Below are positions 10,087 to 57,245 of a stretch of 64,000 nucleotides of DNA, piece by piece. The notes beneath the pieces are model-generated. The model was not told the origin of the DNA and did not search any database. It saw only the letters and a program-made list of their open reading frames with translations. The translations under genes were made by a program, and so were the position numbers. The number at the start of each line of letters is the position of its first letter. Position 1 is the stretch's first letter. Source of the DNA: Cystobasidiomycetes sp. EMM_F5. Taxonomy: Eukaryota. The stretch is taken from the NCBI GenBank assembly GCA_051047955.1, contig JBPGPT010000002.1:1116001-1180000 (forward strand), given 5' to 3'.

Positions 10087-13000
10087 CTACATGAGAAGCA
10101 GCGTCCAGCCGCGCGAAAGGGCGATATCCTTCCAGCTTTGAGCGCAGTCTCCCGCTTGTAAAGCGTCTTCGTTGCGCTCCCAGCACTCTTCCAGCACGCT
10201 CCGCAAACTCCATACGTTTCCGCACGGAGCGTGCCATGTGCTATCAAGGCGGCGATGTAGCACACTGCGATCAGCATGGTTTACAGCAGCCGCCCCAGCA
10301 ACGAAGAAAGCCCAGATTCCGCTGATATTGTAATTGGAATCTATGAGATCCCATTTCAATACGAAGCGTACGACAGACTATGATGCGAAAACTCACTTTG
10401 TTCAATATTGCTTAGCAAGTTTACCATTTCGGTAATTCGCATTTGAACGGGAGAATCGTTTGGCGCCATGCCTTGCAATTCCGTGAGCAAGTGTATGCTA
10501 GCCGCCAGACGGAATAGATCAAAGAAGCGCACTGATACCGCACGGTGTATCTGCGCTTCGTTGGCTACGACCGGAGGAAGCACTAATCGTCCAGGTCGAG
10601 CGAATTGTATTTTGCACTCCAAGTCGCGAATTTTCCTTGAATGTTTCGAAATCAGAGCCTGCCGAGCTGCATTTGTAACTTCGTCTAGGCTCTGTACATC
10701 CGAGGAGAGAAGTGCGACCTGTTCCTCTTTTAGTATCGAGATATCATTCAATAAAGCAATGAAGAAGGTTGGCACTCCTTGCAAACCCAAATTGACATAA
10801 TTCTCAGTCACGCTCGAAAGACCAGCAAGGCGTTCTTCTTGCATATCCCACTGTTCGATGATGTCGATGAGGACGCCGAGGGTGTATATCCCAGGTGATA
10901 AATCCCGCAAGTCACCAGGTCGGCGGGCCAAATTGGCCATGACCTCGTACCATACGTGTAGGCGGACCAGGAACTTGAAGTCAGGATTGGCTTGAAGTAT
11001 ATTCTGCCCTAATCTCTCGAAGCGATCATTTATGATGCTTTGAGCTCGACGCGAGAAATGCTGAGACTGCTGAGTCCCTGCGTCGAACGCATAGTAGAGT
11101 GACAAGAATAGTAGGGTGAAGAGACTGATATCATCTTGCTGTTCAAGAGAGCGTACATAGTAGTCGACACTCGATTCGAAGTACAGCAAGCTTTCAGCTC
11201 TCGCCTCCACTGACAGTGGTGACTGATTTATCGTTGCAACAGCCAAGATTGCAAACAACAGCGGCATCGACTCTGCCGCATGCTCTGCGACGAAGGTGCG
11301 GAAAGGGTTGTTCGGATGGTCAACAGTGTTGAACAGCGGACATGTACTGATGAAATCTGGGAAACAGAAAGTTTCAGGATTATGCATTTCTACACCGTCA
11401 CTGAGCAACATTACATACAATGACGAAGCAGTTCGACATGTCGTTTATTTTCCATAGTCTTCATCTGTTCGCGCATCTTTGCCGGTATTGACCAATCGCG
11501 TTCAGATCCTGGATGTATCGGAGGCGGACCCAAGTCCAGTTCCTCCAGCGTGGGAACGTATGGAGATATTGATGACTTGCCTAGCCTGAGTAGATTTCGT
11601 TTGTGTAATTCAGAGTTGCATGAAGCAGCTAACAAAGGATCAATGGCTGGCTGGGCAGTAAAGCTTGGTGCAGGGGCTGCTGGAGCTGGAAGAGCCGGTT
11701 TCTGGGGGTGCGACACACCCAGGGATGTCGGCGACGACGAGGACAGAGTGTTGAAGACAGATGGAGGTGTTCGTGCGCCGGCTTCCATCTTGACAGAATT
11801 ACAACTCGCATTGTCGATTGGCATGGAAGCAGATGGTGGCAAAGAATCCGCCATCAACGGTCCTTGTAATACCTGATGTAGTTGCGGTGGGAGCGGTAAA
11901 GTCAAAGACAGGTCTGACAAGGGTGAGATTGTCGATGATCCCGTGTCTGGCGTGATATTGAATGCCGGCGGCATTGCTTGTGCTTGAGTTTGCTCTGCCA
12001 CATTACCATTGACGGTATTGACGTTCGCACCAGCAAAGTTACCCGGCGCTGGGACATGTAGTGTCAGCCTTGGACTTTTAGCACAGTAAGCATAAGAGAC
12101 TCACGTAAAGGACTATTTGCATTAGCAAAACTCCTAAGCATTTTGTCGACGAACGCTTCGTCATCCCAGTAATTGTTGGGATACGGTGCTGAGGCATTGA
12201 CGGGAATGTTCTTCGAGGGATTAGCGAAACTGAAAAGAGAATCGAAATCTACTGGAGTCGGCACTGCAATGGGAGTAGGATGTGTGACCAATGTCATGGG
12301 TGTTGACGGTGCCGGTGCAGATGAGGGAGTGTCGAGCTGCTGATTGAAGTCCATCATGCGTACATCGGCATCTGGCAATCCTTCGACCACAGATTCCATG
12401 CCGCAAGCCTGGTTGAGTGTCAAAAGAGGTATGTGTGGAAGGCCTGGATATTCGGCAGTGGCAGGAACGTTGAAACTTCCGAACAGCGGTGCAGATAGAG
12501 GACCGGAATTGCTTGCAAACCGAACGTGATGAGGTTGCGTACGAGACGGATCGAAGTTCAGCCCTGGTGGTCTTGGCCAGGAACTTTTGTTGATTTCTGC
12601 ATACGGCAGAGCAACTGCCATTCGATGATGTGGGCTGTTCACTGCCTGTTCGTCTCTGTGCAGGCTCTCAATTGACGAGACAGAGGAGTCTCTTGAAGAA
12701 GCTGGAGTGGACAGAGAGTGATAATCGCGTCCGTGATAATCGCCTCCAAAGCTTGAGGGCGGTGCAGAATTTATCAGATTTCCCGCAGACGCGTGAGTTG
12801 GCGATGGCGCTGGATATGCTGTTCCCGGATTCCGGCTGGCCGTTGCGTCCTCCGAGTAAGTACGGAAGACAGTCGGCCTTTGCGTACGCGTAGCGGGCCG
12901 ACCTAGACGCTCTGAACCGGCAGGGGAGGTGGCAGCAGCAGACACCGGTGTGGCACTGCCCGAACGAGCAGCCTTTGCCAAATTACGTTCGGTTGGGCGT

Positions 13001-13865
13001 TTTATACCGTATCCTTCGCAAGTCAAGTGACCGACCTGACACCGACGACAGACTGGATGCTGCTCGTCACACTTGATCTTTCTCCGTCTGTACCGTGTTA
13101 ATTTGCGCACGAAGACAGTAGGTACGTCACATAGGACAAAAGGCCGGATGCGAACGAATGCGGTTGGAAGAGGTTGCGCGTTATGCCAAATTGATCAGCA
13201 GCATCGTCGTTGAGGAATGAAAAGCGTTGTCGGTAAGAAAGACGCGTTTTACACGTCCGATAGCGTGTAAATTCCGGTTCACGGGTAGCAGCGTAGTTTG
13301 TCGCCCGTTACGCATGTCATACGGAATCCGGTACGATAAGCCAATCGTCCGTTTAGAGGAGATCACACCGTGGACGAGGCGTAATTGTCGTACGTGTCAC
13401 CCAAAAGTGCATACAGATTATGATTTAGGGTTTCCGAAGCGCCGGACGACCATTTTGCGATTTGTCATGAGTCGCAAGCCGTTGAGCGGGAGTTGGAGAC
13501 CGCGTTTGACGGAATGGAGGTCACATGGCGTATCAATGTGAACCGATGGCGACGAATGCAGATTTTTCGTTGGCGTTCGGATCAGCAGGACGAGGATAGG
13601 TATGGTCGATAAGTCAGTCAGCAAAGCCAGAATTAAGAAGGCGCAACTACGCTTACCGGCACGTCCAGCATCCAGATTTTGTACGCTGGCGCTTTTGTGT
13701 AGCAGGGGCTGCCTTCTTGACCTGATTTGGCGTCCCTCGCTTTACGTGCTCTGGGGACGGAGTTGAAGATGCGCTAGTCCTGCCGTTGACTCCATTCTTG
13801 CCGGATCTGGTCGTTGAAGCAGCAAATTGCTGCTTGTCTGAACCAGTTTCTGGTGTCGTGTTCAT
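10087..13865 (-). CDS. Zn(II)2Cys6 transcription factor with C-terminal fungal-specific TF domain (Fungal_trans_2-like)
   Basis: RTKSGCWTCR|RRKIKCDEQHPVCRRCQVGHLTCEGY across intron 13088-13656; C-terminal domain with FLVRLHVWYEVMANL, FRLAASIHL, IWAFFVAG and SWKDIALSRGWTLLLM*; 5 exons. Confidence 0.92.
13088..13656 (-). other. 569-nt intron inside the Zn2Cys6 motif, with a 5'-proximal branch-point consensus, a ~557-nt AG-free zone and tiled hairpins
   Basis: Donor GTAAGC at 13656 and acceptor TACAG at 13088 restore C-x2-C-x6-C. There is no CT on the + strand (no AG on the sense strand) from 13090 to 13646. GCTGACTGAC lies at 13622-13613. Confidence 0.88.
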
Positions 13866-14747
13866 GCGATTTCTTGGCTGCCTGGCCAATGTAGAGGATT
13901 ATCTTTGCGCGTGTGGACGTCGAGATAGCAGTTGTCGCAAACGAAAACAGCTTTAGGAGCTCCTGCGTTGCTTCGGCGATGGATGGCGACGGTTAGCGGG
14001 GAAAACTGGCGTTTGTTGTGAGATCCGACGCTGCGAATTCGTCTGGAATGCCCGCACAGAACGAGGGTTCTTCTGCTTCAGCCCAGCCGTCACAATGGAC
14101 GCTGTTGAGCGAACCCGGACGAGCGGACGAGTGCCAGGATCGGCCGGGATGTGTGAGACAGTCACTTCTCTGGCTGAAGGTGGCCACCTGATAGGGATGG
14201 CGTTGGAGCTTTCTTTTGTAGAAATAGAAAGGATTACGAGGGGAATGTGATATGAGATTCAATAGAAAGTCTTGCGTTGTAGTTCTTGATTGAAATATCC
14301 AGCAAAAGCACTAGCAATGCTGCTTTTTCGACAAAGAAAGCCGCAAAGCCGGCCAAACCGAGACTAACTGCCTCGTCCAAAGGTTGAACGGGTGTGCAAA
14401 TTTCTTTCGCCGAACGTAGTTCGATGGTTTGACGTTTCCGATACCGTTTGGGCGTCGGACGAGCTCCCGGCCCACTGATGGATGGCTATGGACGGCAGAG
14501 TCTGACTGTTGCAAGCTGCCCAGGCTGGACTCGCAGCACCCGAAGGCTGGCTGAGCCTGTGCAAGCCTCGCAGCCTGGCAAGCTGGGCGCACCTCGAGTT
14601 GTGTGCGAGCCAATGTATGTCTTTGTCTCTGATCATAACGTGGCCGTGTAAATGAATTCAGGTTGTCTTTACATCAATTGCCTGCGTTTTCTGAACATCC
14701 TAAGTCACTGCTGGCAGGCTTCTGGACTCATTATTACTCTCGCAATA

Positions 14748-27460: not shown

Positions 27461-29140
27461 TCTGCGGCGGTAGAACTCTGACTGATCCAGCTTGGGTGTA
27501 GCTTGTCAAGAACTATTGCGCCCGTTGTCTGCGTGCTTGCTGCTGTTCTGTCCGGTTTCAGATGTTCAAGTAGGAACGGCGGCAACCGTGCAAACATCGG
27601 ACAAACAGCCAGACGCAGCTGAAGAAGGCCATGACAGCTGACGAGCTGATATTATGTATGCTTACAGCTGACTGAGACTGCAAAGCTCTCGAGACTTGAG
27701 TTTTCTCATCACGAAAGACGCGCGTAAAGCACTGGTCCAAACAGCATTCTGTTTCCAAGAGAGGGCATAGCTCTTCTTCACGGGCCTGTATAGAGTGCTC
27801 TAGGCGAGAACGTCCATCATGATGACCAATTCAAACGTCGACACTGGCAGTCGCGTACATTGTTTTTCAGTTTACTCCGTTCGGACTTGGTCTGTCTTCA
27901 GCTGCTTTCGAACAGCCAGCACGTACATCAGCAGTGCAGCCGTAAGCACAATGTGTACCTTCTAGCGAATACTGACTTTGCTGCTGGCCAAACACGCGCA
28001 AATCCAGCGTAATCGCATTGAATACGTTTCTTTTGCAACTTGTACAACAAACGCGTCCGGAACTGAGGGATACGTCTGCGATGTCACTGCTGTTGCTGAC
28101 CACAAGATCTCAGTGTGATCTTCCGAATAGTGTGGACCCGGCTGTCTGATATTGCGGGTGAAGCCACGCGGCGTTTCCGATGAGGGACTAAAAAGCAATC
28201 GATGCGATATTGCACGCGTAGACGTCGCATTATAGGTGAAGCCGCCAGTTCACGCATGCGGGGCAACGGCGCTGTGACCGGTAGGACGGCCGGCGAAAGC
28301 TTTCGTTCTTTCATCATCCTCGTCGGTATCCCTTTACGCGTCTTTCCGATATCCGTGGAGTCTGCAGAAAGCGGACGACAAGTAGCTTTCGCACTGCTGG
28401 TCAGAAGCATCGGAGTGCAACATCGTCACTGGTCGAGCTGAGCGTAGCCATCTGCGAAAAAGCGCCAATCCGCTGCGTTCGTCTCAACCACCTTGTCAAT
28501 TGCAAGGTCAGTTGATACTAGAAATTGCGAGCGGAATGCAAGCATACGCCAATGAGGGACATACTGCTCCATTACAGACGCTAATCTTCTCAAGCTCAGA
28601 TCTAGGATCCCCTGCCCAATTTTCTGGTAGTGTCCGAGGGTCATCACTTTCGTCGAGACCGTTACTCCCGCGCCAGCCGGGCCGCCAACTTGGCCACTAG
28701 AGCATTTTCATAGGGCACAGCGAGGCGACACAGTGCAATACGACCATTCAGAGCTGCTACAACACCCACTGTCTCCTCACAATGGCAGACGTGCAATAGC
28801 CTGCATCTTTCTGTGAAGAAAGTGGCCATCGCGTCAATCACGTGCGTTCAGCGAATTCCTGCTGCTTCCTCCGACCACAATTTGGGGAGCAAGTCGCTTC
28901 GTTGTTGTTTGTGTACGGTACTGATGATGTTTTCAATAGGTGCGAACGTCCTCAATCCGACGTAGTCAGCTACGGCTCTATCATCCGTCCCCTTCAACCA
29001 AAATCTTTGGCTCCGATTTGTGGGGAATCTTTCCAGCCAAAACCGACGACCAGCTCTACCTAGCGGGAAGGCACATCATTCTGTCACCTTAGCCTCCGGT
29101 TTCGCTAGGCTACCCTCTCTATACGTAGAGAGGACAGAAT

Positions 29141-30676
29141 ATGTCAGCCCCGTCGCATGAGCTCGCAAATTGGCTCCCGCCTTCCGCGTGGGGACAAACT
29201 TCGACTTCCTCATCTGCAAACTTCTCATCCAATAACACATCTTCCAAGTTTCAAACATTAGATCATCTCGATCTAACTCCAACCCGCCTGGAATTATGTC
29301 GCGATCCTACGAATGTCCAAGCGTGGCTAGCCCGAGCATCACCCGACAATACAAGCAGGGCTGCCCGCGCCAATGCTCGGCACAAGGCTACAACCACGTC
29401 GAGCGCTTCCCTCAGCACGCAGCAAACACAGATTTCCGCGAGCGCGCCAGCCTACTCGCCGCCAACGGCTGACGACAGTCATGAAATTGTACAGCGCCCA
29501 TTCGCCAGCTCACGCACGACGTCCAGCTCATCTATCCCTTCGTACTATACGAGCTCGGCCAACTCGCCGGCAGACGACGACAGCGTTACAGAATCTACCT
29601 CTACGACTTATACCTCCTCCCGCACGAGCGCAAAGAAGAATGTTCGCCTTGGTGTAGTCGAGAAGAGACAGATGTGCGAAGAGTATGTGCATACCCGAGT
29701 TCGGCAAAAGGATCTCAGTATCAAGTACGGTGTGGAGCGCTCCACGGTCAGCAAAATATTGAAGGAAAAGGAGGCTTGGTTGGTGACACCTTCGTCTGCT
29801 GGTGCTGCAAATGTCTCGACCAGCCGACAATCAACCCCACAAATCTCGCCAGTCTCTCCGCCGCGGAAGCTCTGTCGCGGTCGATATCCCTTGGTGGAAG
29901 AGCTACTGATCCGCTGGGGTCGTACGTACGAGGGGAAATTCACCGACGATCTCGTTCGTGGGCAAGCACGAACGATCGCACAGTCGCTCGGTGTTGAGTA
30001 TAGTACCTTCAAAGCTAGTTCGGGCTGGCTTGAAAATTTCAAGGCGCGCACCGGATATCGAAGCAGTAAATTCGGTCGCATAGCTTCCATGCCGGCAAAC
30101 ACTCCAAAATCGAGCCAGACCACCACAGATGGCTTCGTAAGCCCCGGCGCGTCGACCTCCGCTAGCGCTCAACAGCCGTTGAATACGTCATCTGCGTGGG
30201 CAGCCTCCTTCGCTATGCAGCCCAATGTTGATTCCCAAGTATCGATGAACGAAGCAGATGCCGTAAATCAATCTTCATCTGGACCAGCTCCGGCAATAAT
30301 CGCGCCTCGTCCAATGCAAGTCATCAAATTAGAGCAGATGCCTTCCTTCCTGATGGAAGCTCCACCGATGATCTCGCCGGCGCTTTCCTTTGGCTCCTCC
30401 TCGGAATACTCTTACAATTCTTTTGGGCAGGCTCCATCCAGTCTCCATACGCCATACTCCGTATATCCCGGCAGCCACATGCCAACTATGACCACTTCGG
30501 ATCTGAACAACACGCCTATTCAAGCCGACTTCACGAATTGTTACAATTACGCCCCCTTTTCGGAAACTTTGATGATGCCGGTACCGTCAGCTCCAATGTA
30601 CCTTACTTCGAGCAATGGTCAACAACAGCCATACACGTCAAATGAATTCTTATCACAAATACCATACAATTTTTGA
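29141..30676 (+). CDS. CENP-B/pogo-type DNA-binding protein (psq-type HTH + Tc5 HTH) with no DDE domain; intronless
   Basis: RLGVVEKRQMC...RQKDLSIKYGVERSTVSKILKEKEAW (HTH1) and RYPLVEELLIRW...TDDLVRGQARTIA...FKASSGWLENFKAR (HTH2), followed by a low-complexity S/P/M-rich tail. Confidence 0.88.
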   Translation: MSAPSHELANWLPPSAWGQTSTSSSANFSSNNTSSKFQTLDHLDLTPTRLELCRDPTNVQAWLARASPDNTSRAARANARHKATTTSSASLSTQQTQISASAPAYSPPTADDSHEIVQRPFASSRTTSSSSIPSYYTSSANSPADDDSVTESTSTTYTSSRTSAKKNVRLGVVEKRQMCEEYVHTRVRQKDLSIKYGVERSTVSKILKEKEAWLVTPSSAGAANVSTSRQSTPQISPVSPPRKLCRGRYPLVEELLIRWGRTYEGKFTDDLVRGQARTIAQSLGVEYSTFKASSGWLENFKARTGYRSSKFGRIASMPANTPKSSQTTTDGFVSPGASTSASAQQPLNTSSAWAASFAMQPNVDSQVSMNEADAVNQSSSGPAPAIIAPRPMQVIKLEQMPSFLMEAPPMISPALSFGSSSEYSYNSFGQAPSSLHTPYSVYPGSHMPTMTTSDLNNTPIQADFTNCYNYAPFSETLMMPVPSAPMYLTSSNGQQQPYTSNEFLSQIPYNF

Positions 30677-33807: not shown

Positions 33808-35513
33808 ATGGTCCGTAGGCTGCAGTCGTGCAGGGTCGCCTGGGTCTCGCAGGGATTGCCGCTGACAATGACTGTTCGCAGGGCCAAGGTGCATCAAACA
33901 TGCGACCCGGCGCTGGGGGACCACCGGGTGGTGCGGGAGGAGGCAAGGACAAGAAGAAGGACCCGCCCAAGAAGTTTGAACCGCCAGTACCTACGCGCGT
34001 AGGCAGAAAGAAGCGCAAGGGTCCAAATACTGCCCAGAAACTGCCAGTCGTGTATCCAAACGCGAGATGCAGGCTCAAGCTGCTCAAGCAGGAAAGAATC
34101 AAGGACTATCTGCTTCTCGAGGAGGAATTTATTCAGAATCAGCAGCGGTTGACGCCTCAGGCCTCGGAGGATAAGAATCAAGCAGAACGGAATCAGGTAG
34201 ACGACCTTAGGGGCAGTCCAATGCAGGTCGGAACGCTCGAAGAGATTATCGATGACGATCACGCTATCGTGTCGTCGACGACCGGCTCAGACAGCTACGT
34301 TACCATTCTCAGCATGTGAGCAGCCAGTTGGTTGCTTAATGGGATGGTGCCTGAGAATCCATCACCTTTACAGTGTGGACAAGGACATGCTAGAGCCAGG
34401 CTGCTCTGTATTGTTACATCACAAGACCTCCGCTGTCATTGGTGTGCTATCCGACGATACAGACTCATCCGTTAACGTGTGAGCATTTTCAGCAACCTAT
34501 ATACGCAAGCACTCCTGACATGCCCTCTCTTACTCAGCATGAAGCTCGACAAGGCGCCTACAGAAAGCTATGCTGACATCGGCGGGCTTGAACAGCAGAT
34601 TCAAGAGATTAAAGTATGTGACTTTGTCTTATCGGAGGAAGACCATGTTCTGATAGTACACCCGCAGGAATCCGTTGAACTACCCTTGACACACCCCGAG
34701 TTGTACGAAGAGATGGGTATCAAGCCTCCAAAGGGTGTCATTCTTTATGGCGTACCGGGAACCGGCAAGACTTTACTCGCCAAAGCCGTCGCCAACCAGA
34801 CATCCGCAACATTCTTACGTATCGTCGGAAGCGAGCTTATTCAGAAGTACCTCGGTGATGGACCAAAGCTCGTCCGTGAACTGTTTAGGATGGCAGAAGA
34901 GCATGCGCCGAGTATCGTCTTCATTGACGAGATTGACGCGGTCGGCACAAAGCGGTACGACTCGAATTCTGGAGGAGAGCGAGAGATCCAGAGAACCATG
35001 CTTGAGTTGCTCAATCAGCTCGATGGCTTTGATTCAAGAGGAGACGTCAAAGTCATCATGGCTACGAATCGGATCGACTCGCTCGACCCCGCCCTGATCC
35101 GACCAGGCAGAATAGACAGAAAGATCGAATTTCGTAAGTCACAAAACGACATTTTACTCTTGTCAGAGCTGACTGTCGAGTTGTTCCATAGCCCTGCCCG
35201 ATATCAAGACCAAACGCTACATCTTCAAGATTCATACATCGAGAATGAGTTTGGCGGAAGACGTAGACTTGGAAGAGTACGTCATGGCCAAAGACGAGCT
35301 GTCTGGTGCAGACATCAAGGCCGTGTGCACGGAAGCCGGACTGCTCGCCCTCAGAGAACGGCGGATGCGCGTAAACAAGCAAGACTTTACGGCCGCGAGG
35401 GAGAAGGTCCTCTACAGGAAGAACGAGTGAGCATTTACTTGTTCAGGTGATGATGTGTGCATCGCTGAACATCTCTGTCACTCAGGGGTGCCCCGCAAGG
35501 CTTGTACTTGTAG
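33808..35513 (+). CDS. RPT2: 26S proteasome regulatory ATPase subunit 4
   Basis: ATG-only first exon, then GQGASNM...; [36 protein letters not shown], Walker A GVPGTGKT, Walker [38 protein letters not shown] and C-terminal HbYX GLYL*. Confidence 0.98.
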
Positions 35514-36666: not shown

Positions 36667-37774
36667 ATGGCTTACACACATCCGTCCATAGACAGACCGA
36701 GGGACCAGTCTGCTGCTAATGCCGGAGTCGGACCCGCTCCCTTCTTTCGTTCCCTTCTCGACCTCTCTACGTGGCTCCTCATCGGCGCGTCTGCTCAGGC
36801 AATCATCACCCTTCTGCCTTTATCCAAACGCTATGTTATCCTACCTCCACTCGCTCTGCTATCGTATCGGATACTATCGACCATCATTGCCGCCTCGACG
36901 TACAAACCCGGTCAGAATGGGGAAATTCTGCACAAAGTAACAACAGACTTCAGTAGAGACCCCGCATCTGACGGTTCGGTTTGCGTACTGCTGCTGGGCT
37001 TCAAGATTAATCAGTATGTAGTGTGCACACTACTGAAATGCATGTGACGTACTGAATTAGATTGTCTCGACAGCCCACTGGGTCTGCTTGCACCCGGAAC
37101 GAAGCAGATTGCAGCCTACGCACAGAAGATGAACGAAGACTTGTGTACCAATGCCGTAAAATTCAATTATCTCGGCTCTTCGCGCTGGATAAACGCCAAC
37201 GACGGGTCATCTTGCCATGAGATAATGACTCTGTTCTACTTTCGCAAACGAGAGGATGTGCTCCACTTTGCAAATTCCGAAAGTCACCGAGAGGGTTGGG
37301 CGTGGTGGAACAAGGATCTGGCAAAACTTGGACACCTAGGGATGTGCGTTGACTATTTCCTCCGCTTCTCTTACACTGTGACTGAGCATTCTATGACGCT
37401 TGTTCTCGTTGCTGATATCTCTCCTGCACTGCGACTGAAAATTACGCATCACCTCGTCCCGTTGGTATCACACAGCTCTCATGAGGTCTTTGAAGCGCCC
37501 ATGGGTAGCTGGGAGGGCATTTACGTCAACTACAGGCCTAGCGGAATCTGCGCAACGACCTTCAAAGCGGTCGATGAGGCGAGTGGGGAGGAGAGATGGA
37601 TGTCGCCGTTACAAGATGCAAGTAAGGGTCGTTATCGGACGCACGAAGGGCGTGTCGGTCTTGGCAACGGCGCAGAACATGACAAGTATGCTGGTACGTC
37701 GTATTACTCTCGTCGTGCCTGTCAGTTTGCGAGAGACTGATGCATGGCGCCTCACAGACACGCCGAGACAGTGA
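36667..37774 (+). CDS. DUF4188-family monooxygenase-like protein (Af470-like) with N-terminal TM helices
   Basis: VCVLLLGFKIN|xPLGLLAPG, YFRKREDVLHFANSESHREGWAWWNK, HLGI|SHEVFEAPMGSWEGIYVNYRPSGI match the family pattern. Confidence 0.78.
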
Positions 37775-45325: not shown

Positions 45326-48300
45326 ATGACACCAAGTATACTGAACCTGCGCAATGATGCCGCCGCGTCTCCCGCTAATGACGGAGACGAAGGTGGCCTC
45401 TCGAGCATTGCGACCGAGATCTTGAACGGCCTGCGAAAGACCGAGAGAATCGTGCCAGGAAGGAGCAGCGAGGATGAGCAATACGCCTTCACCAAGACTA
45501 TCCCTACAAGTGTGTAGCCTGTCCATCGTGCTCAAACGACAGAAACGCTGATGGCTTGCGGTGATTGTCTAGTGATTTTGTATGATGACAAAGGTACGGA
45601 GAATAGGGCACCTGGCCTTCAAAGCAGACAACAACTCAAGGTCGCATATTCTCACAGGTCTAGACATTTACGATCGTATTACCGCGCTCGAAGAATACTA
45701 TCTCTACAGCTCCGAGCTAGCTATACTCGAAAAGCACGGGGCGGATATTGTAAGCCACACTGCAACAGCCAATTACGTAATTGTACTGAACGTGCGTATC
45801 TGCGCTGGCAGGCAAGACGCTTGTTTGGCTCTAATCCTACATCCGCTGCGACTCCCAATAAAGTCAAGGAAGCCATTTCTGCTAATGAAGCCTCAGTGTC
45901 ACCTTCGAGATCTACTAACTCTGCAAGTGAGGACGACGGCAAGTCAAATGACGACGAGAATGAAGAGGATCATGACATTCCGAGCGATTCCGGCTATGGC
46001 GACCGAGAGGAGCGAGCAAAGAAGGAGAGATGGGGCGACGGCGCTGTGGGGAAGAACAATTTCGGAGTGAACGGAAATCTGGGCCTTGAGGATAATCAAA
46101 GCAGATGTTCCGGCTCCGTGATTGAACTGGGCGCCGGATCGCTTAAAAAGACGAGTGTGCTGCTGCGCAACCTGGCAGAACTACTCAAAACTGGCAACGT
46201 GGATAGTCTGAAATACTATGCTCTTGACCTCGAACACGGCCAGCTCGTATCCACACTCGAGCAGCTGGAACGGAAAGAGTCGGACAGTATCACACTTGAT
46301 ACGGGAAAGTCAGTACGCAGCAACGGCAAGAAGATTATTGCGAGCGGTATATGCGCTTCATACGAAGAAGCTTTCCCATACCTCAAGCAGGGCAAGCTTG
46401 GCAAGGCAGATACGGAAGATACCAGCAAGAAATGCATCCTCTTTCTCGGGTCCTCTGTCGGCAACTACTCTCGCACAGAAGCTGTTGACTTTTTGCGAAA
46501 CATCTCCGATACAGCCATGTCGGCTGGTGATTCCATGCTCATTGGCATCGATTCGTGTGATGATAAACTTCGTGTAGAGACTGCATATAATGATCCGCAG
46601 GGCGTTACAAGGGACTTCATCCTCAATGGTATCGACCATGCTAATCGCATTCTCGGAGGAAGTGCCGGCTTGTCGCGTAATGACTTCGAATATGTCTCAC
46701 GATACAACCAAGGGGAGGGTCGCCATGAGGTACGTCCCGTTTATCTCAAACGCATTACAGCCTGATATTGACATCGCGTCGTTGGCACATCAGGCATATC
46801 TTCGCGTCAAAGTCGACATTGCGCTGAAGGTTCCTGGCGGCGAGATTCAACTTATAAGGGATGAGTTGGTGTCCATCGAGCGATCCTATAAATACACGCT
46901 GGATGAAGCAGAAGCATTATTCGCAGCTGTCGGCCTGCGTATCGTAGCGAGATGGAACGACACGGACAGGACTGGCGACTACAACCTCTTCATGGTCGAG
47001 AAACCGCCTTTTGGGTTTCCGAGCACGCTAGAGACTGTTGAAAAGGGAGGAAACCCATTCGGTCTGCCCACTATTGCAGAATGGGACAGTCTGTGGAAGG
47101 CTTGGGACTGCGTCGTGAGCAAGAGATGCAATCTACACCGCTGAACTCTCGTGTTGATGTATAAGTGGTCCAGACCTTATCAATGATTCCACAAGACCTG
47201 CTACACTCAAAGCCAATCGACTTACGCCATATTTGTCTGTTCTATCTGGGCCACATACCAGGATTTCTAGACATACATATGAGCGTAAGTCAAAGCTCGT
47301 CCCTCAGCATGCTATTACTAATGCAGCGCCTGTTTCTGTGCTTGACAGCGCTACTTGAAGGCACCGTATACCGAGCCAGCTCACTTTCCAGACATGTTCG
47401 AGCGCGGTATTGACCCGAACATGGATGTAAGTGGGTCTGCACGCTTTGCTGAGACCGATCCTTATGTGCGTTCTACCTTCAGGACCCTTCTAAAGTGCAT
47501 GCACATTCGGTTGTGCCCTCAAGAATGGAGGACTGGCCTTCCCTTGATGAGATTGTGGAATATCGCGACCGTGTTCGAGCCAGACTGCACTCAGTCTACA
47601 GTGAGCTATTGTCGGACTCTGATAGGATCGATACGCGGCTGGTCCGAACCATGAGCATGGTGTACGAGCATGAAGTCATGCATCTCGAGACTCTCTTATA
47701 GTATGTTGCCGGTTGAGGAATGTAGATGGCGGCAGTACTGACTCAGTTCGCGGCAGCATGTGCGCACAGATCGCGCCAGGAAAGCTGAAAGCTGCACCCT
47801 CTTTCAGCATTTGCGATTTCAAGCAATTGACAGAAATGTGGAACCTGGAAGTAGCACTGGAACAACGCGATACGCGCGCACTGGTGACATCGTTTGGTCA
47901 ATCGACTATCGAGATTGGCCACGATGACTTCGACCATCTAGATTCGCAGACAAAGTACGACCCGTCCCATACATTTGGATGGGACAACGAAAGTCCGAAA
48001 CGTTCAGTGGTTGTGGCGGCGTTCAATATAAGCCTACTTCCCATCAGCAATGAGGACTACAGGGTCTTCTTTGAAAAATCCGGCTCCCCGAGATCTCTGT
48101 TACCTGGATCTTGGACAGAGATCAGTGCTGGCAAGTACGGCATCAAGGTTCTGACGCAGCCGAGTGTAGTTCCGCTAGAACTTGCAAAGGAGTGGCCATG
48201 CATGGCTTCCGGCAAGCAGCTCGCAGCTTACGCGACTAGTGTCGGCGGGCGACTTCCTACGGAACCGGAACTCCGTAGATTTATGCTGGACCACCCCGCC

Positions 48301-48815
48301 GATCATATTGGCAGCAATATCGGGTTCAGAAACTGGCACCCTGTACCGTAAGCCGTCTATCGCAGCGTAGCAAGTCATAGCTGACCGCGGAGTCAACACA
48401 CAGAGCGCGTCTTCCCAAAACTCTACGGGATGGCACGAAGACTGGCGCGTCCAACGGCGGTGTTTGGGAGTGGACTTGCACGGACTTTGCAGCTCACGAA
48501 GGTTGGCGAGCATCGGAACTGTATCCCGACTATTCCAAAGATTTCCACGACGGATGCCACTGGGTCATGTTGGGCGGCAGTTTCGGTATGTTTCCCCATC
48601 AATGTAGCTGTTTGCGCGCCCGAAGGCTGATGGGATGATGACCGGGTAGCTACCATACCTCGCGTTGCGGGCAGGAAGACGTTCACAAATTGGGTATGCG
48701 CTGCTCCTGCCGCTGATTGTCGAGCCCTGACTGACTCTCTCCTCGGCGTCACCTTTAGTACCAGGCAAATTATCCATACGTGTTTGCTGGTGCGCGTGTA
48801 GCATATGACGCTTGA
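45326..48815 (+). CDS. EGT1: Ergothioneine biosynthesis protein 1 (histidine N-trimethyltransferase fused to hercynylcysteine sulfoxide synthase)
   Basis: KTIPT|xILYDDK|GLDIYDRITALEEYYL, IELGAGSLKKT, FLGSSVGNY and AYNDPQGVTRDFILNG (EgtD-like); KPIDLRHICLFYLGH, FERGIDP and EHEVMHLETLL (HxxxHxE iron site); FGWDNE, RLPTEPEL, GGVWEWT and YQANYPY (FGE-sulfatase-like domain). Confidence 0.96.
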
Positions 48816-55100: not shown

Positions 55101-57245
55101 GTGCATGGACGTGACCAATGAAGGCTGCAATTGTCGATATGAGGTGATCATGTATAGCGGAGATAGTACGGTAAACCTCGACAGCTACTTGAGGCTGGTC
55201 AGCACCATCGGCAGGGGTGAGTGGACCTGCTGACGACACGATAGACGATCTATCAGAACAAATCGATTCGTTTTGTTGCCATGCAGGATCGGATTGCGCG
55301 GGCGTATACACAGCTGGTATAGACGGCCGTCGAACCATCGCGGCCTGCACAATCTGTGATCGTGGCATATGGTGCGACGCTGGCTCTTTCTCCAAGAAAG
55401 TGAACTGCAGATGATGTGGAATGCCGCTACTCTTGTGGCTAAGGCCGTTGTGATGGCCGCCTTCGCCGCTTGCCGAGCTCGTGCTACTGGCTTCTGACGC
55501 TTTGCGACGTGCTCGAATGTCGCTGAGGCTTCTGGCTTTGTGGACACCGCGAGCTGGCGTATTGCTCCGCTTAAGACCGCCGCTGTCCTTACGGCCCGTT
55601 TCGACGGTAGGGAATGATAAGCAAGTATCCAAGTCTGGCGTGGAGATATTTTCCAGTCTCAAGAGTTGAGATAGACCTTGACCACCAGCCACATGCACGG
55701 AGTCAGACGATGTTGGCGAATCGACGAGTTTGACTCCGCACTGCTGAGCGATAGTCAAAAAGTGTTCGACATTCTGTTGTATGCGAGTTGCCATCTGAAT
55801 CATTGTGGAAGCGGCAGTCTGCTGCGAATGATCGCTGAGCTCTGAGCTGGAAGCCGTCTTCGCCTGCGATACCAATGCTGCAAGGAACGACAAGATCTGT
55901 CGTCGCTCTTGTGCAAGTATATGATTCTTGCGCAGTACTGGCGACTCCTTAGCGAGGCAATTTGTAGCGGCTAGTAGAGACCGCACGGTGGCTATCAGAC
56001 ACGTTGTAGCTGGCTGATAGTGCGAGACGCGACGCGCATCTAGAGCGGCTTGCATTAGTGCGACTGCTTGCACGACTGGACTGGACAGGTCGCCGAGGGC
56101 TTGCACGGAGCAATTGTAGCCTTGTTCGACTGACGTGAGCATCATGTGAGCAAGACTTGATCGCTGATGATTGTTCGAGTATTCGCCATGACCGTGATTA
56201 CCGGCTGGTGTTGGCACTGGCGACGAAGCAGCCCGTTGCATCCTCTCTGAGGTCGATGTTGCAGCTATGGATGGTGCGGTCGACGTGAAGGAAGTTCGAG
56301 AGCTGTTCACAGCGGCCGTGAATATCCCATTATCGCTCGGCGCGCGATAGGCAGAGTTTACGCTACTGCGACGAGAGCTAGTTCCACCCAAGACGAGTGT
56401 ACGGGCCCCAGCTTCATCTGTGCAGTTACTTGCGCTACTCTGTGCCAATGCAGGCTTGACCTCGTGCTCGTCCATAGCTTCTGACGTTGAAGGACACCTG
56501 GGCGTATCACATTGAGTCGTCTGATTATGAGGTTAAGAGGTGTAGAAGACGGCGGGAGGCATCAATGACAGCCAATCAGCTCCTTGACCAGAGACATGCA
56601 GGTGATACCGCCACCAAGGGGCGTCAAAACATGTCATACATGGATGCCCCTGGTGATCACAGTACCCTGTAAAGCTAAACCCACCACGTAATTGGATGGG
56701 AACCATCCTCTGATGTCATCAACCTCTCCGTCCCACCAGCCAGAGGCATCCTTGTTGAAGACCTTGATGAGCTGGCCGGCTGTAAACGACAAACAGACGT
56801 TTGACCCCGAGTCTACTGCCGAATAATCGTGCAGAGCTTGAACGTATTCGTGCATTATTGGCGTGGTCATTGAATTCGCATCTTCTTGTTCTGATTCATT
56901 CTTGGACTGCAACATGACTGCCATGACCGTTGCATTCTCGTCTTGACTGGAATCCGCTCGGACCCCGCCCGGTGCTGGGGGAAGGGTCTTCTCTGTCATT
57001 TGCGAGTATCGAGAACTGGACGTGGACGTCGATGTCGATGCAACGATGCCAGCAGTCATGGCGTCCATGCGTCCTGACACTGCATCAAAGTGAAATGGGT
57101 CAGACGCGACTGAACTCCGATAGTCGCGTCGATCGTCATTGTATCCAAGAACGCTATGGCGCAGACTGCTCCCATCGCTGTTGGTGCTGGCGCTGCTACT
57201 CATTGTACTGGCGTTACCGTAGCTTACTCTGGCCTTGACAGACAT
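52107..57245 (-). CDS. CDC25: Ras guanine nucleotide exchange factor, Cdc25-like (SH3, REM, RasGEF domains)
   Basis: SH3: YVQALHDY...CLSFTAGQLIKVFNKDASGWWDG...RGWFPSNYV. REM: GGTFSCLVERMT...TFFMTFRMFTTP. GEF: FDPLELARQLT, QNFNTLMAI, PCLPFLGLYLTDITF, INFDRY, LIEPRE. Confidence 0.95.

Follow-up and report, generated by a model that had tools for sequence, protein, structure and literature searches.

An AG-free stretch of 557 nucleotides in an intron of a basidiomycete zinc-cluster gene: a candidate AG exclusion zone behind a distant branch point

Introns whose branch point lies far from the acceptor are known from mammals, where AG exclusion zones lie behind the distant branch points, and from budding yeasts, which rely on RNA stems instead. 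A distant-branch intron of Saccharomycotina, in APE2, was reportedly described as a thermosensor by Meyer et al. in 2011. In human exons with distant branch points, the AG exclusion zone starts out with the branch site and a pyrimidine tract, and AGs that are inserted into the zone serve as acceptors. Mutation of the branch site confirmed zones of 288 and 381 nucleotides (nt), the latter in human PTB exon 11 (PMC1431707). We analyzed a 64,000-nt stretch of DNA from Cystobasidiomycetes sp. EMM_F5 (contig JBPGPT010000002.1, positions 1,116,001 to 1,180,000). We call this whole stretch the window, and all coordinates are positions within it. On its minus strand, a gene for a Zn2Cys6 transcription factor is interrupted by a 569-nt intron in which 557 consecutive nucleotides do not contain a single AG. 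Judging from its sequence, the best reading is that this is an AG exclusion zone that is kept by selection downstream of a branch point near the 5' end of the intron. We lean modestly towards that reading.

The intron runs from 13656 to 13088 on the minus strand and has the form GTAAGC...ACAG. Its coordinates were proposed in an earlier examination that considered only the DNA letters (the sequence-only reading), and our analysis reproduced them; the intron is indeed about 10 times as long as the ordinary introns of the window. Its 5' splice site (GTAAGC, 13651..13656) is of a type that is also present in one of those ordinary introns (48348-48403). AG is found at positions 4-5, 9-10, and 568-569 of the intron and nowhere else, which leaves a zone of 557 nt (13090..13646, minus strand) whose sense strand is devoid of AG. 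The first AG past this zone is that of the 3' splice site (CAG, 13088..13090). The zone lies directly upstream of the acceptor and is well above the threshold of at least 100 nt that we used to recognize distant-branch introns.

The length of this run, and the sequence-only expectation of about 35 AGs within it, held up. The expected number is 34.8 for uniform base composition, 36.7 given the AG frequency on the minus strand of the window (0.0659), and 25.5-26.3 given the base composition of the intron itself. At the window's AG frequency, the probability of such a zone is about 3e-17. We also shuffled the single nucleotides of the inner 557 nt 20,000 times; the shuffled sequences had 25.5 AGs on average and never fewer than 11, so none of the 20,000 was free of AG. 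Viewed on the plus strand of the window, the region is a CT-free gap of 559 nt, and none of the 16 dinucleotides has a longer gap there; the second longest is an AA-free gap of 246 nt. The next AG-free gaps in the window are 148 nt (plus strand) and 143 nt (minus strand), or about the chance level for 128 kb. The depletion is also specific to one strand: the opposite strand of the zone has 44 AGs (that is, 44 CTs on the sense strand), and all other dinucleotides of the zone are at 0.68-1.66 of their expected frequencies. The zone is not repetitive either. Of its 552 hexamers, 503 are distinct; no trinucleotide without AG is absent, and none is over-represented by more than 2-fold. Tandem Repeats Finder reported no tandem repeats in the intron, and a search for a repeated motif in the AG-free zone found none. 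Since the zone is complex and non-repetitive, neither chance nor low complexity accounts for it: the lack of AG is far beyond chance and highly non-random, and we give chance or a compositional artefact virtually no probability.

An AG-free sequence of this length is fragile. Of the 1671 possible single substitutions in the zone, 239 would create an AG, and under neutral divergence the AG-free state would survive with P = 0.42 (at 1% divergence), 0.18 (2%), 0.014 (5%), or 0.0002 (10%). This implies that the AG-free state is either maintained by selection or very young.

The zone is also rich in CpG (56 observed versus 33.7 expected, for a ratio of 1.66, while the ratio for the window is 1.01). 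This excess is partly forced, as G cannot follow A in the zone; relative to the allowed predecessors (C, G, and T), it is about 1.3-fold.

As a control, we collected ordinary introns from the window. A scan for introns that bridge open reading frames (ORFs) gave 18 candidate short introns, and we kept the 9 that had one clear acceptor. These are 34479-34537, 37014-37073, 45510-45572, 46730-46793, and 48348-48403 on the plus strand, and 21410-21359, 12104-12049, 11418-11357, and 10396-10341 on the minus strand. Three overlapping candidates at 29922-30018 were dropped because they lacked an evident branch site, and 37021-37107, 52875-52825, 52875-52798, 25182-25134, 25182-25119, and 10371-10322 were dropped as alternative or ambiguous. 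The 9 ordinary introns are 52-64 nt long, and every one of them contains a YTGAN branch motif with a TGA core (CTGAC in 4 introns, CTGAA in 2, and CTGAT, TTGAC, and TTGAA in one each). The branch A follows the donor by 37-45 nt and precedes the end of the intron by 14-22 nt. Between the donor and the branch site, the ordinary introns have 17 AGs in 278 nt (0.061), which is the genomic density. Past the branch A, they have AGs only at a distance of 4-7 nt (in 2 of the 9), and these are evidently bypassed. As the density of AG is normal upstream of the branch point, AG is avoided only behind the branch point and not in the introns of this fungus generally.

A second intron of unusual length may be present in a RasGEF gene. 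This candidate intron (56521-56684, minus strand, 164 nt) directly follows the SH3-like end of the gene's product (...GWFPSNYV). Counting back from its end, it has a TTAAC at 12 nt and a CTGAT at about 55 nt. If it is real, then it is the second longer-than-usual intron in the window, but it has 5 internal AGs and is not AG-free.

The long intron contains a tandem branch-point consensus, GCTGACTGAC, at 13613..13622 on the minus strand (intron positions 35-44). As the sequence-only reading had remarked, this is where a short intron would place its branch point: the candidate branch As are at intron positions 39 and 43 (13618 and 13614), within the range of 37-45 for the 9 ordinary introns. Just past the tandem site is a pyrimidine-rich stretch (13587..13611, minus strand) with 72% C+T over 25 nt. 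(The intron averages 57% C+T with a standard deviation of 8.6%.) Given the position of these As and the pyrimidine-rich stretch, the first 44 nt of the long intron resemble an ordinary intron. In an ordinary intron, the acceptor would follow at 14-22 nt; here, the next AG is 526-530 nt away, in agreement with the earlier count of about 525 nt. Only 34 nt lie upstream of the tandem motif, with two AGs, both in the first 10 nt. The AG-free zone begins at position 11, so a consensus branch site with an adjacent pyrimidine tract is near the 5' end of the zone, as would be expected for a distant branch point.

There are other branch-like sites in the intron, including the alternatives that the sequence-only reading had listed (TTAAC and two GCTGAT), which we found at the same positions. 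YTGAN motifs are also present at intron positions 72, 121, and 459. The first of these is within a GCTGAT at 13581..13586 (intron 71-76, with its A at 75). The last is within a GCTGAT at 13194..13199 (intron 458-463), and its A at 462 is 107 nt from the end of the intron. Nearer to the 3' end, the only candidates are off-consensus: GTGAC, 39 nt from the end (candidate branch position 13126), and the weak TTAAC at 13097..13101 (intron 556-560), 10 nt from the end (candidate branch position 13098). (All of these sites are on the minus strand.) TTAAC, GTGAC, and CTGAT would each depart from the pattern of the ordinary introns, which favours the 5'-proximal branch site.

Several lines of evidence indicate that the 569-nt interval is a real intron between the second and third cysteines of the zinc cluster of a real gene, as had been proposed, and we consider this well supported by the sequence comparisons. 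Pfam identifies Zn_clus in exon 2 (E = 4.8e-6) and Fungal_trans_2 in the downstream ORF (E = 2.6e-21), so this is a gene for a transcription factor of the Zn2Cys6 / Fungal_trans_2 type. The coding part of exon 1 (13657..13865, minus strand) begins with the ATG at 13865 and contributes Cys1 and Cys2 of the zinc cluster. It ends in ...SGCWTC followed by CG, the first two bases of a split arginine codon. Exon 2 (12105..13087, minus strand) begins with the third base of this codon and then encodes RRKIKCDEQHPVCRRC..., with Cys3 to Cys6. The rest of the gene (10090..12104, minus strand) contains the Fungal_trans_2 domain and three ordinary introns (12104-12049, 56 nt; 11418-11357, 62 nt; and 10396-10341, 56 nt). 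The match to Zn_clus in exon 2 covers positions 8-36 of the 39 positions of the profile; because it begins at position 8, the first cysteine pair is not in exon 2. When we removed the 569 nt in silico, we obtained an open frame of 400 codons whose product has the pattern C-x2-C-x6-C-x5-12-C-x2-C-x6-8-C at residues 66-93, with the junction residue (70) inside it. Among removals of every length between 30 and 628 nt, that of 569 nt was the only one that restored the complete Zn2Cys6 motif. With a GT donor, an AG acceptor, and a removal that restores both the open frame and a conserved motif, this interval fits the U2-type GT-AG class of introns.

The exon junction is corroborated by a relative from the same class of fungi. 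When the C-terminal ORF was compared with representatives of protein clusters, 17 relatives were found, which were mainly fragments. One of the clusters contains a named full-length protein (XP_066819887.1, 1102 residues) from Cystobasidium minutum MCA 4210 (Basidiomycota, Pucciniomycotina, Cystobasidiomycetes). The host of the intron is accordingly a Cystobasidium relative, a yeast-like basidiomycete rather than a mould of the ascomycetes. With tblastn, this ortholog matches the window at 71% identity across 319 residues of the C-terminal domain, and it reveals two more short introns in the host gene. Residues 59-69 of exon 1 align with residues 92-102 of the C. minutum protein, and residues 1-26 of exon 2 align with its residues 104-129. 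The gap between the two alignments is exactly one residue, which corresponds to the split codon, and the zinc-cluster motif is contiguous in the annotated ortholog. Exon 2 had no match among longer proteins; among proteins of similar length, it matched only the ORF call from the window itself and one unrelated zinc-cluster protein. Searches for relatives in metagenome contigs (with exon 2 and with the C-terminal alignment), in genome contigs, and in viral contigs found none. Short contigs from DNA sequencing run X1 match 13575-13725 and 13759-13909 with no differences, and a contig from run X2 matches 13883-14083 with one difference; coverage was limited to these segments, and no joints were reported.

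Three short metagenome contigs from run X1 match only the zinc-cluster coding part (13038-13080), at under 90% identity. These come from other Zn2Cys6 genes rather than from established orthologs. In one of them, the cysteine motif appears to continue without an intron at this site, and in the other two, an intron seems to be placed a few codons farther upstream; each of these impressions comes from a loose end of 30 letters.

We propose that splicing of this intron would proceed as follows. U2 would pair with the 5'-proximal CUGAC of the tandem CUGACUGAC, and the branch A would be 39 or 43 nt from the donor. After the lariat forms, the spliceosome would take the first AG that is more than about 10 nt past the branch (the bypass distance). 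The first such AG is at 13089-13088, and it alone would restore the frame along with the C-x2-C-x6-C spacing. If a new AG arose in the tail, it would act as a premature acceptor, which would destroy the DNA-binding domain, and purifying selection would keep the 557 nt free of AG. In other words, the acceptor must be at 13089-13088 to rebuild the zinc cluster, so AGs in the tail would be selected against. Purifying selection against spurious AG signals has been described near the 3' ends of short introns (PMC10946897), which agrees with this selective logic. That the 5'-proximal branch point is used, that the first AG is chosen at such a distance, and that selection is the cause are all things that we infer. 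The sequence-only reading had likewise favoured a distant branch point with exclusion of AG, and this remains the best reading available; it had also supposed that a long functional element is kept in the intron, and we saw no sign of one.

A number of points weigh against our proposal. A branch-acceptor distance of 526 nt would exceed the published cases with which we can compare it: the 381-nt zone in human, and maxima (database figures that are quoted in PMC3239191) of 166 nt for Saccharomyces, 471 nt for C. glabrata, and 185 nt for K. lactis. In S. cerevisiae, splicing is lost when this distance is raised to about 120 nt, and the natural distant-branch introns need a stem, which brings the two sites closer together and conceals AGs; the conclusion of the authors is that processive scanning by the yeast spliceosome does not take place (PMC3239191). 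We could not detect a stem that would shorten the distance between the branch site and the acceptor in any of three folding tests (described below). Also, the part of the intron that is richest in pyrimidines is not behind the tandem site but at 13129..13174 on the minus strand (intron 483-528, where 25-nt windows that start at 483-504 have 72-76% C+T). This is what a conventional branch site near the 3' end would predict, so the branch may instead be there. Our control set is small (n = 9) and was picked partly by eye. Finally, the proposal does not explain how an AG-free tail of 500 nt could have originated stepwise.

The strongest alternative is that productive splicing branches close to the 3' end of the intron, at TTAAC, GTGAC, or CTGAT (10, 39, or 107 nt from the end), and that the loss of AG reflects avoidance of decoys. 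If the consensus branch sites upstream are competent, then any AG behind them would make a short cryptic intron, so AGs would be purged even if those sites are not normally used. As this alternative would have it, the strongest pyrimidine-rich stretch comes after CTGAT (459) and before the acceptor, and a branch-acceptor distance of 10-107 nt would be nearer to known fungal practice (PMC3239191). The candidate 164-nt intron of the RasGEF gene has a TTAAC near its end as well. But a single motif should be far easier to lose than 25-37 AGs, yet the tandem and perfect CTGACTGAC has been retained, and at the standard offset from the donor. TTAAC lacks the TGA core that is found in 9/9 ordinary introns, and its distance of 10 nt from the end is below their range of 14-22 nt. 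Furthermore, 2/9 ordinary introns bypass an AG at 4-7 nt past the branch A. On balance, we consider a 3'-proximal branch point to be rather unlikely, although it is the alternative that we take most seriously.

Another alternative, which we consider quite improbable, is that the intron is a young insertion (introner-like or derived from a transposon) that was AG-free when it arrived, in which case the pattern would reflect selection on a mobile family or simply the recency of the insertion. Its length relative to ordinary introns is like that of introner-like elements (PMC3609843), and at a divergence below 1-2%, the AG-free state could persist without selection, as computed above. However, the window does not contain a second copy of the intron (apart from the intron itself, blastn gave at best a match of 15 nt, E = 0.10), we found no terminal inverted repeats or tandem repeats in the intron, and it has no excess of predicted structure, whereas stable structure is a stated hallmark of introners (PMC3609843). 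A recent insertion also leaves the absence of AG unexplained unless the element was also spliced from a 5'-proximal branch point. It is more doubtful still that the constraint is unrelated to the 3' splice site, such as avoidance of CT on the plus strand (due to an antisense transcript or a process that acts on DNA) or a platform for protein binding. Only the strict specificity of the depletion, for one strand and one dinucleotide, speaks for this, and we give it very little probability: the zone stops exactly at the functional acceptor, so that the first AG is the correct one, and the intron has no protein family in its ORFs on either strand, no Rfam family, and no repeated motif. Repeat-induced point mutation does not fit a zone that has 50% G+C, 27 TpA and 37 ApT, and an enrichment rather than a depletion of CpG. 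Neither it nor any other DNA process that acts symmetrically fits the loss of one dinucleotide from one strand of such a sequence.

The sequence-only reading suggested that the intron might act as a sensor through its RNA structure or might host a non-coding RNA, and our results do not support either idea. The intron by itself is not predicted to fold more stably than shuffled sequences (minimum free energy z = +0.98; 81 of 100 shuffles fold equally well or better). With 60 nt of exon on each side, z was -0.83 (4 of 20 shuffles did as well), and for the 516-nt tail, z was +0.44. When the native tail is folded at minimum energy, its exterior-loop path between the branch region and the acceptor takes 20 steps, versus 18.2 +/- 10.2 in 150 AG-free dinucleotide shuffles. 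We therefore rejected a structure-dependent intron of the COF1/UBC13 type, as there is no excess of stability or compaction and there are no AGs to mask. Judging from these predicted folds, which do not demonstrate a function, the generic collapse of a long RNA might bring the acceptor near the branch site without any selected structure; such collapse is a known property of large RNAs. A scan with Rfam found no family inside the intron. (The sole Rfam match, to mir-278, is outside the intron and on the other strand, and it is sub-threshold, at 22.7 bits versus a gathering score of 55.) Similarly, Pfam found no family in the 5 ORFs of the intron (both strands).

We noticed two potential pairings near the splice sites. 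Exon 1 at 13661-13675 (5-19 nt upstream of the donor) and exon 2 at 13053-13067 (21-35 nt downstream of the acceptor) could form a perfect 10-bp duplex within 15 nt that are 87% paired overall. In a post hoc test, we saw a duplex of at least 10 bp in 78 of 5000 sequences that were recoded synonymously for these peptides, compared with 1 of 5000 shuffled sequences. This duplex is missing from the minimum-energy fold, but if it forms, it may place the far acceptor beside the donor. Alternatively, 13192-13205 in the intron could pair with 13056-13069 in exon 2 (14 nt, 86%). This pairing overlaps the CTGAT site at 13198-13194, and it is present in the fold of the intron with its flanks.

If the intron is retained, then translation would end immediately, as the sequence-only reading had stated: the frame reads Cys-Arg-stop, with the stop two codons into the intron. 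Because the intron lies inside the DNA-binding motif and its retention leads to a stop, the efficiency of splicing would directly set the level of the active factor. Regulation by slow or conditional ligation of the exons is possible but speculative. In the most specific version of this idea, which we consider unlikely, the intron would be a gate on the transcription factor: branching at the 5'-proximal site would be normal, but ligation to an AG over 500 nt away would limit the rate and could be tuned by temperature, by the compaction of the RNA, by second-step factors, or by an exon-exon duplex, and the unspliced RNA would end in the immediate stop. If so, this intron would be the longest natural substrate for the choice of the first AG, and a fungal spliceosome would be able to find an acceptor more than 500 nt away without a dedicated stem. 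An AG exclusion zone at this locus would mean that the first-AG rule holds in a new lineage and over a longer distance than in the published cases that we compared it with. It would also provide a natural substrate for the old question of whether the acceptor is found by a linear search or by proximity after the RNA collapses.

Two other regions of the window have features of their own. On the plus strand at 29129-30676, a 515-codon ORF matches HTH_Tnp_Tc5, the DNA-binding domain of Tc5 transposase (E = 6.9e-9). This ORF might encode a transposase of the pogo/Tc5-like kind, or it might be a CENP-B-like gene that has been domesticated. Also on the plus strand, at 45518-48351, adjacent ORFs contain Methyltransf_33 (histidine-specific methyltransferase) and FGE-sulfatase domains and are split by short introns (46730-46793 and 48348-48403). 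We take this pair of domains to be the architecture of the ergothioneine synthase Egt1.

Word searches of the open-access literature found no report, for filamentous or basidiomycete fungi, of an AG exclusion zone this long or a branch point this distant. The TTAAC-containing site about 10 nt from the acceptor is reminiscent of U12-type introns. These have a donor consensus of the type RTATCCTT, while the donor of this intron is GTAAGC, so we rejected this classification. Like the stwintrons of fungi (PMC8469720; PMC9024468), this is an unusually long and complex intervening sequence in a fungal gene. But in a stwintron, a splice signal of the outer intron is interrupted by an internal intron that must have a donor, a branch site, and an AG acceptor of its own. 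Past position 10, our intron has no internal AG, so we rejected this classification as well. The introner-like elements of Dothideomycetes are also much longer than regular introns and have canonical splice signals, but they are from a different fungal phylum, and our intron has one copy in the window and no excess of structure; depletion of AG is not among the features of these elements in the available text of the two papers (PMC3609843; PMC4457414).

Among fungal introns, the nearest cases are COF1 and UBC13 of Saccharomycotina (Gahura et al. 2011, PMC3239191), which have a branch-acceptor distance far above the norm, as we propose here. Those introns use a stable stem that masks silent AGs, while our intron has no AGs to be silenced and is predicted to fold no better than shuffled sequences. 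The intron also resembles those of PTB exon 11, GABBR1 exon 23, and alpha-tropomyosin exon 3 of human and rat (Gooding et al. 2006, PMC1431707). In these systems too, a long AG-free zone extends up to the acceptor, a consensus branch site followed by a pyrimidine-rich stretch marks the 5' side of that zone, and splicing takes the first AG after the branch. Unlike those cases, this one has no flanking alternative exon, and its branch point is a predicted one. Its zone is 557 nt rather than 288 or 381 nt and spans nearly the whole intron, and it is in a yeast-like basidiomycete whose ordinary introns are just 52-64 nt long.

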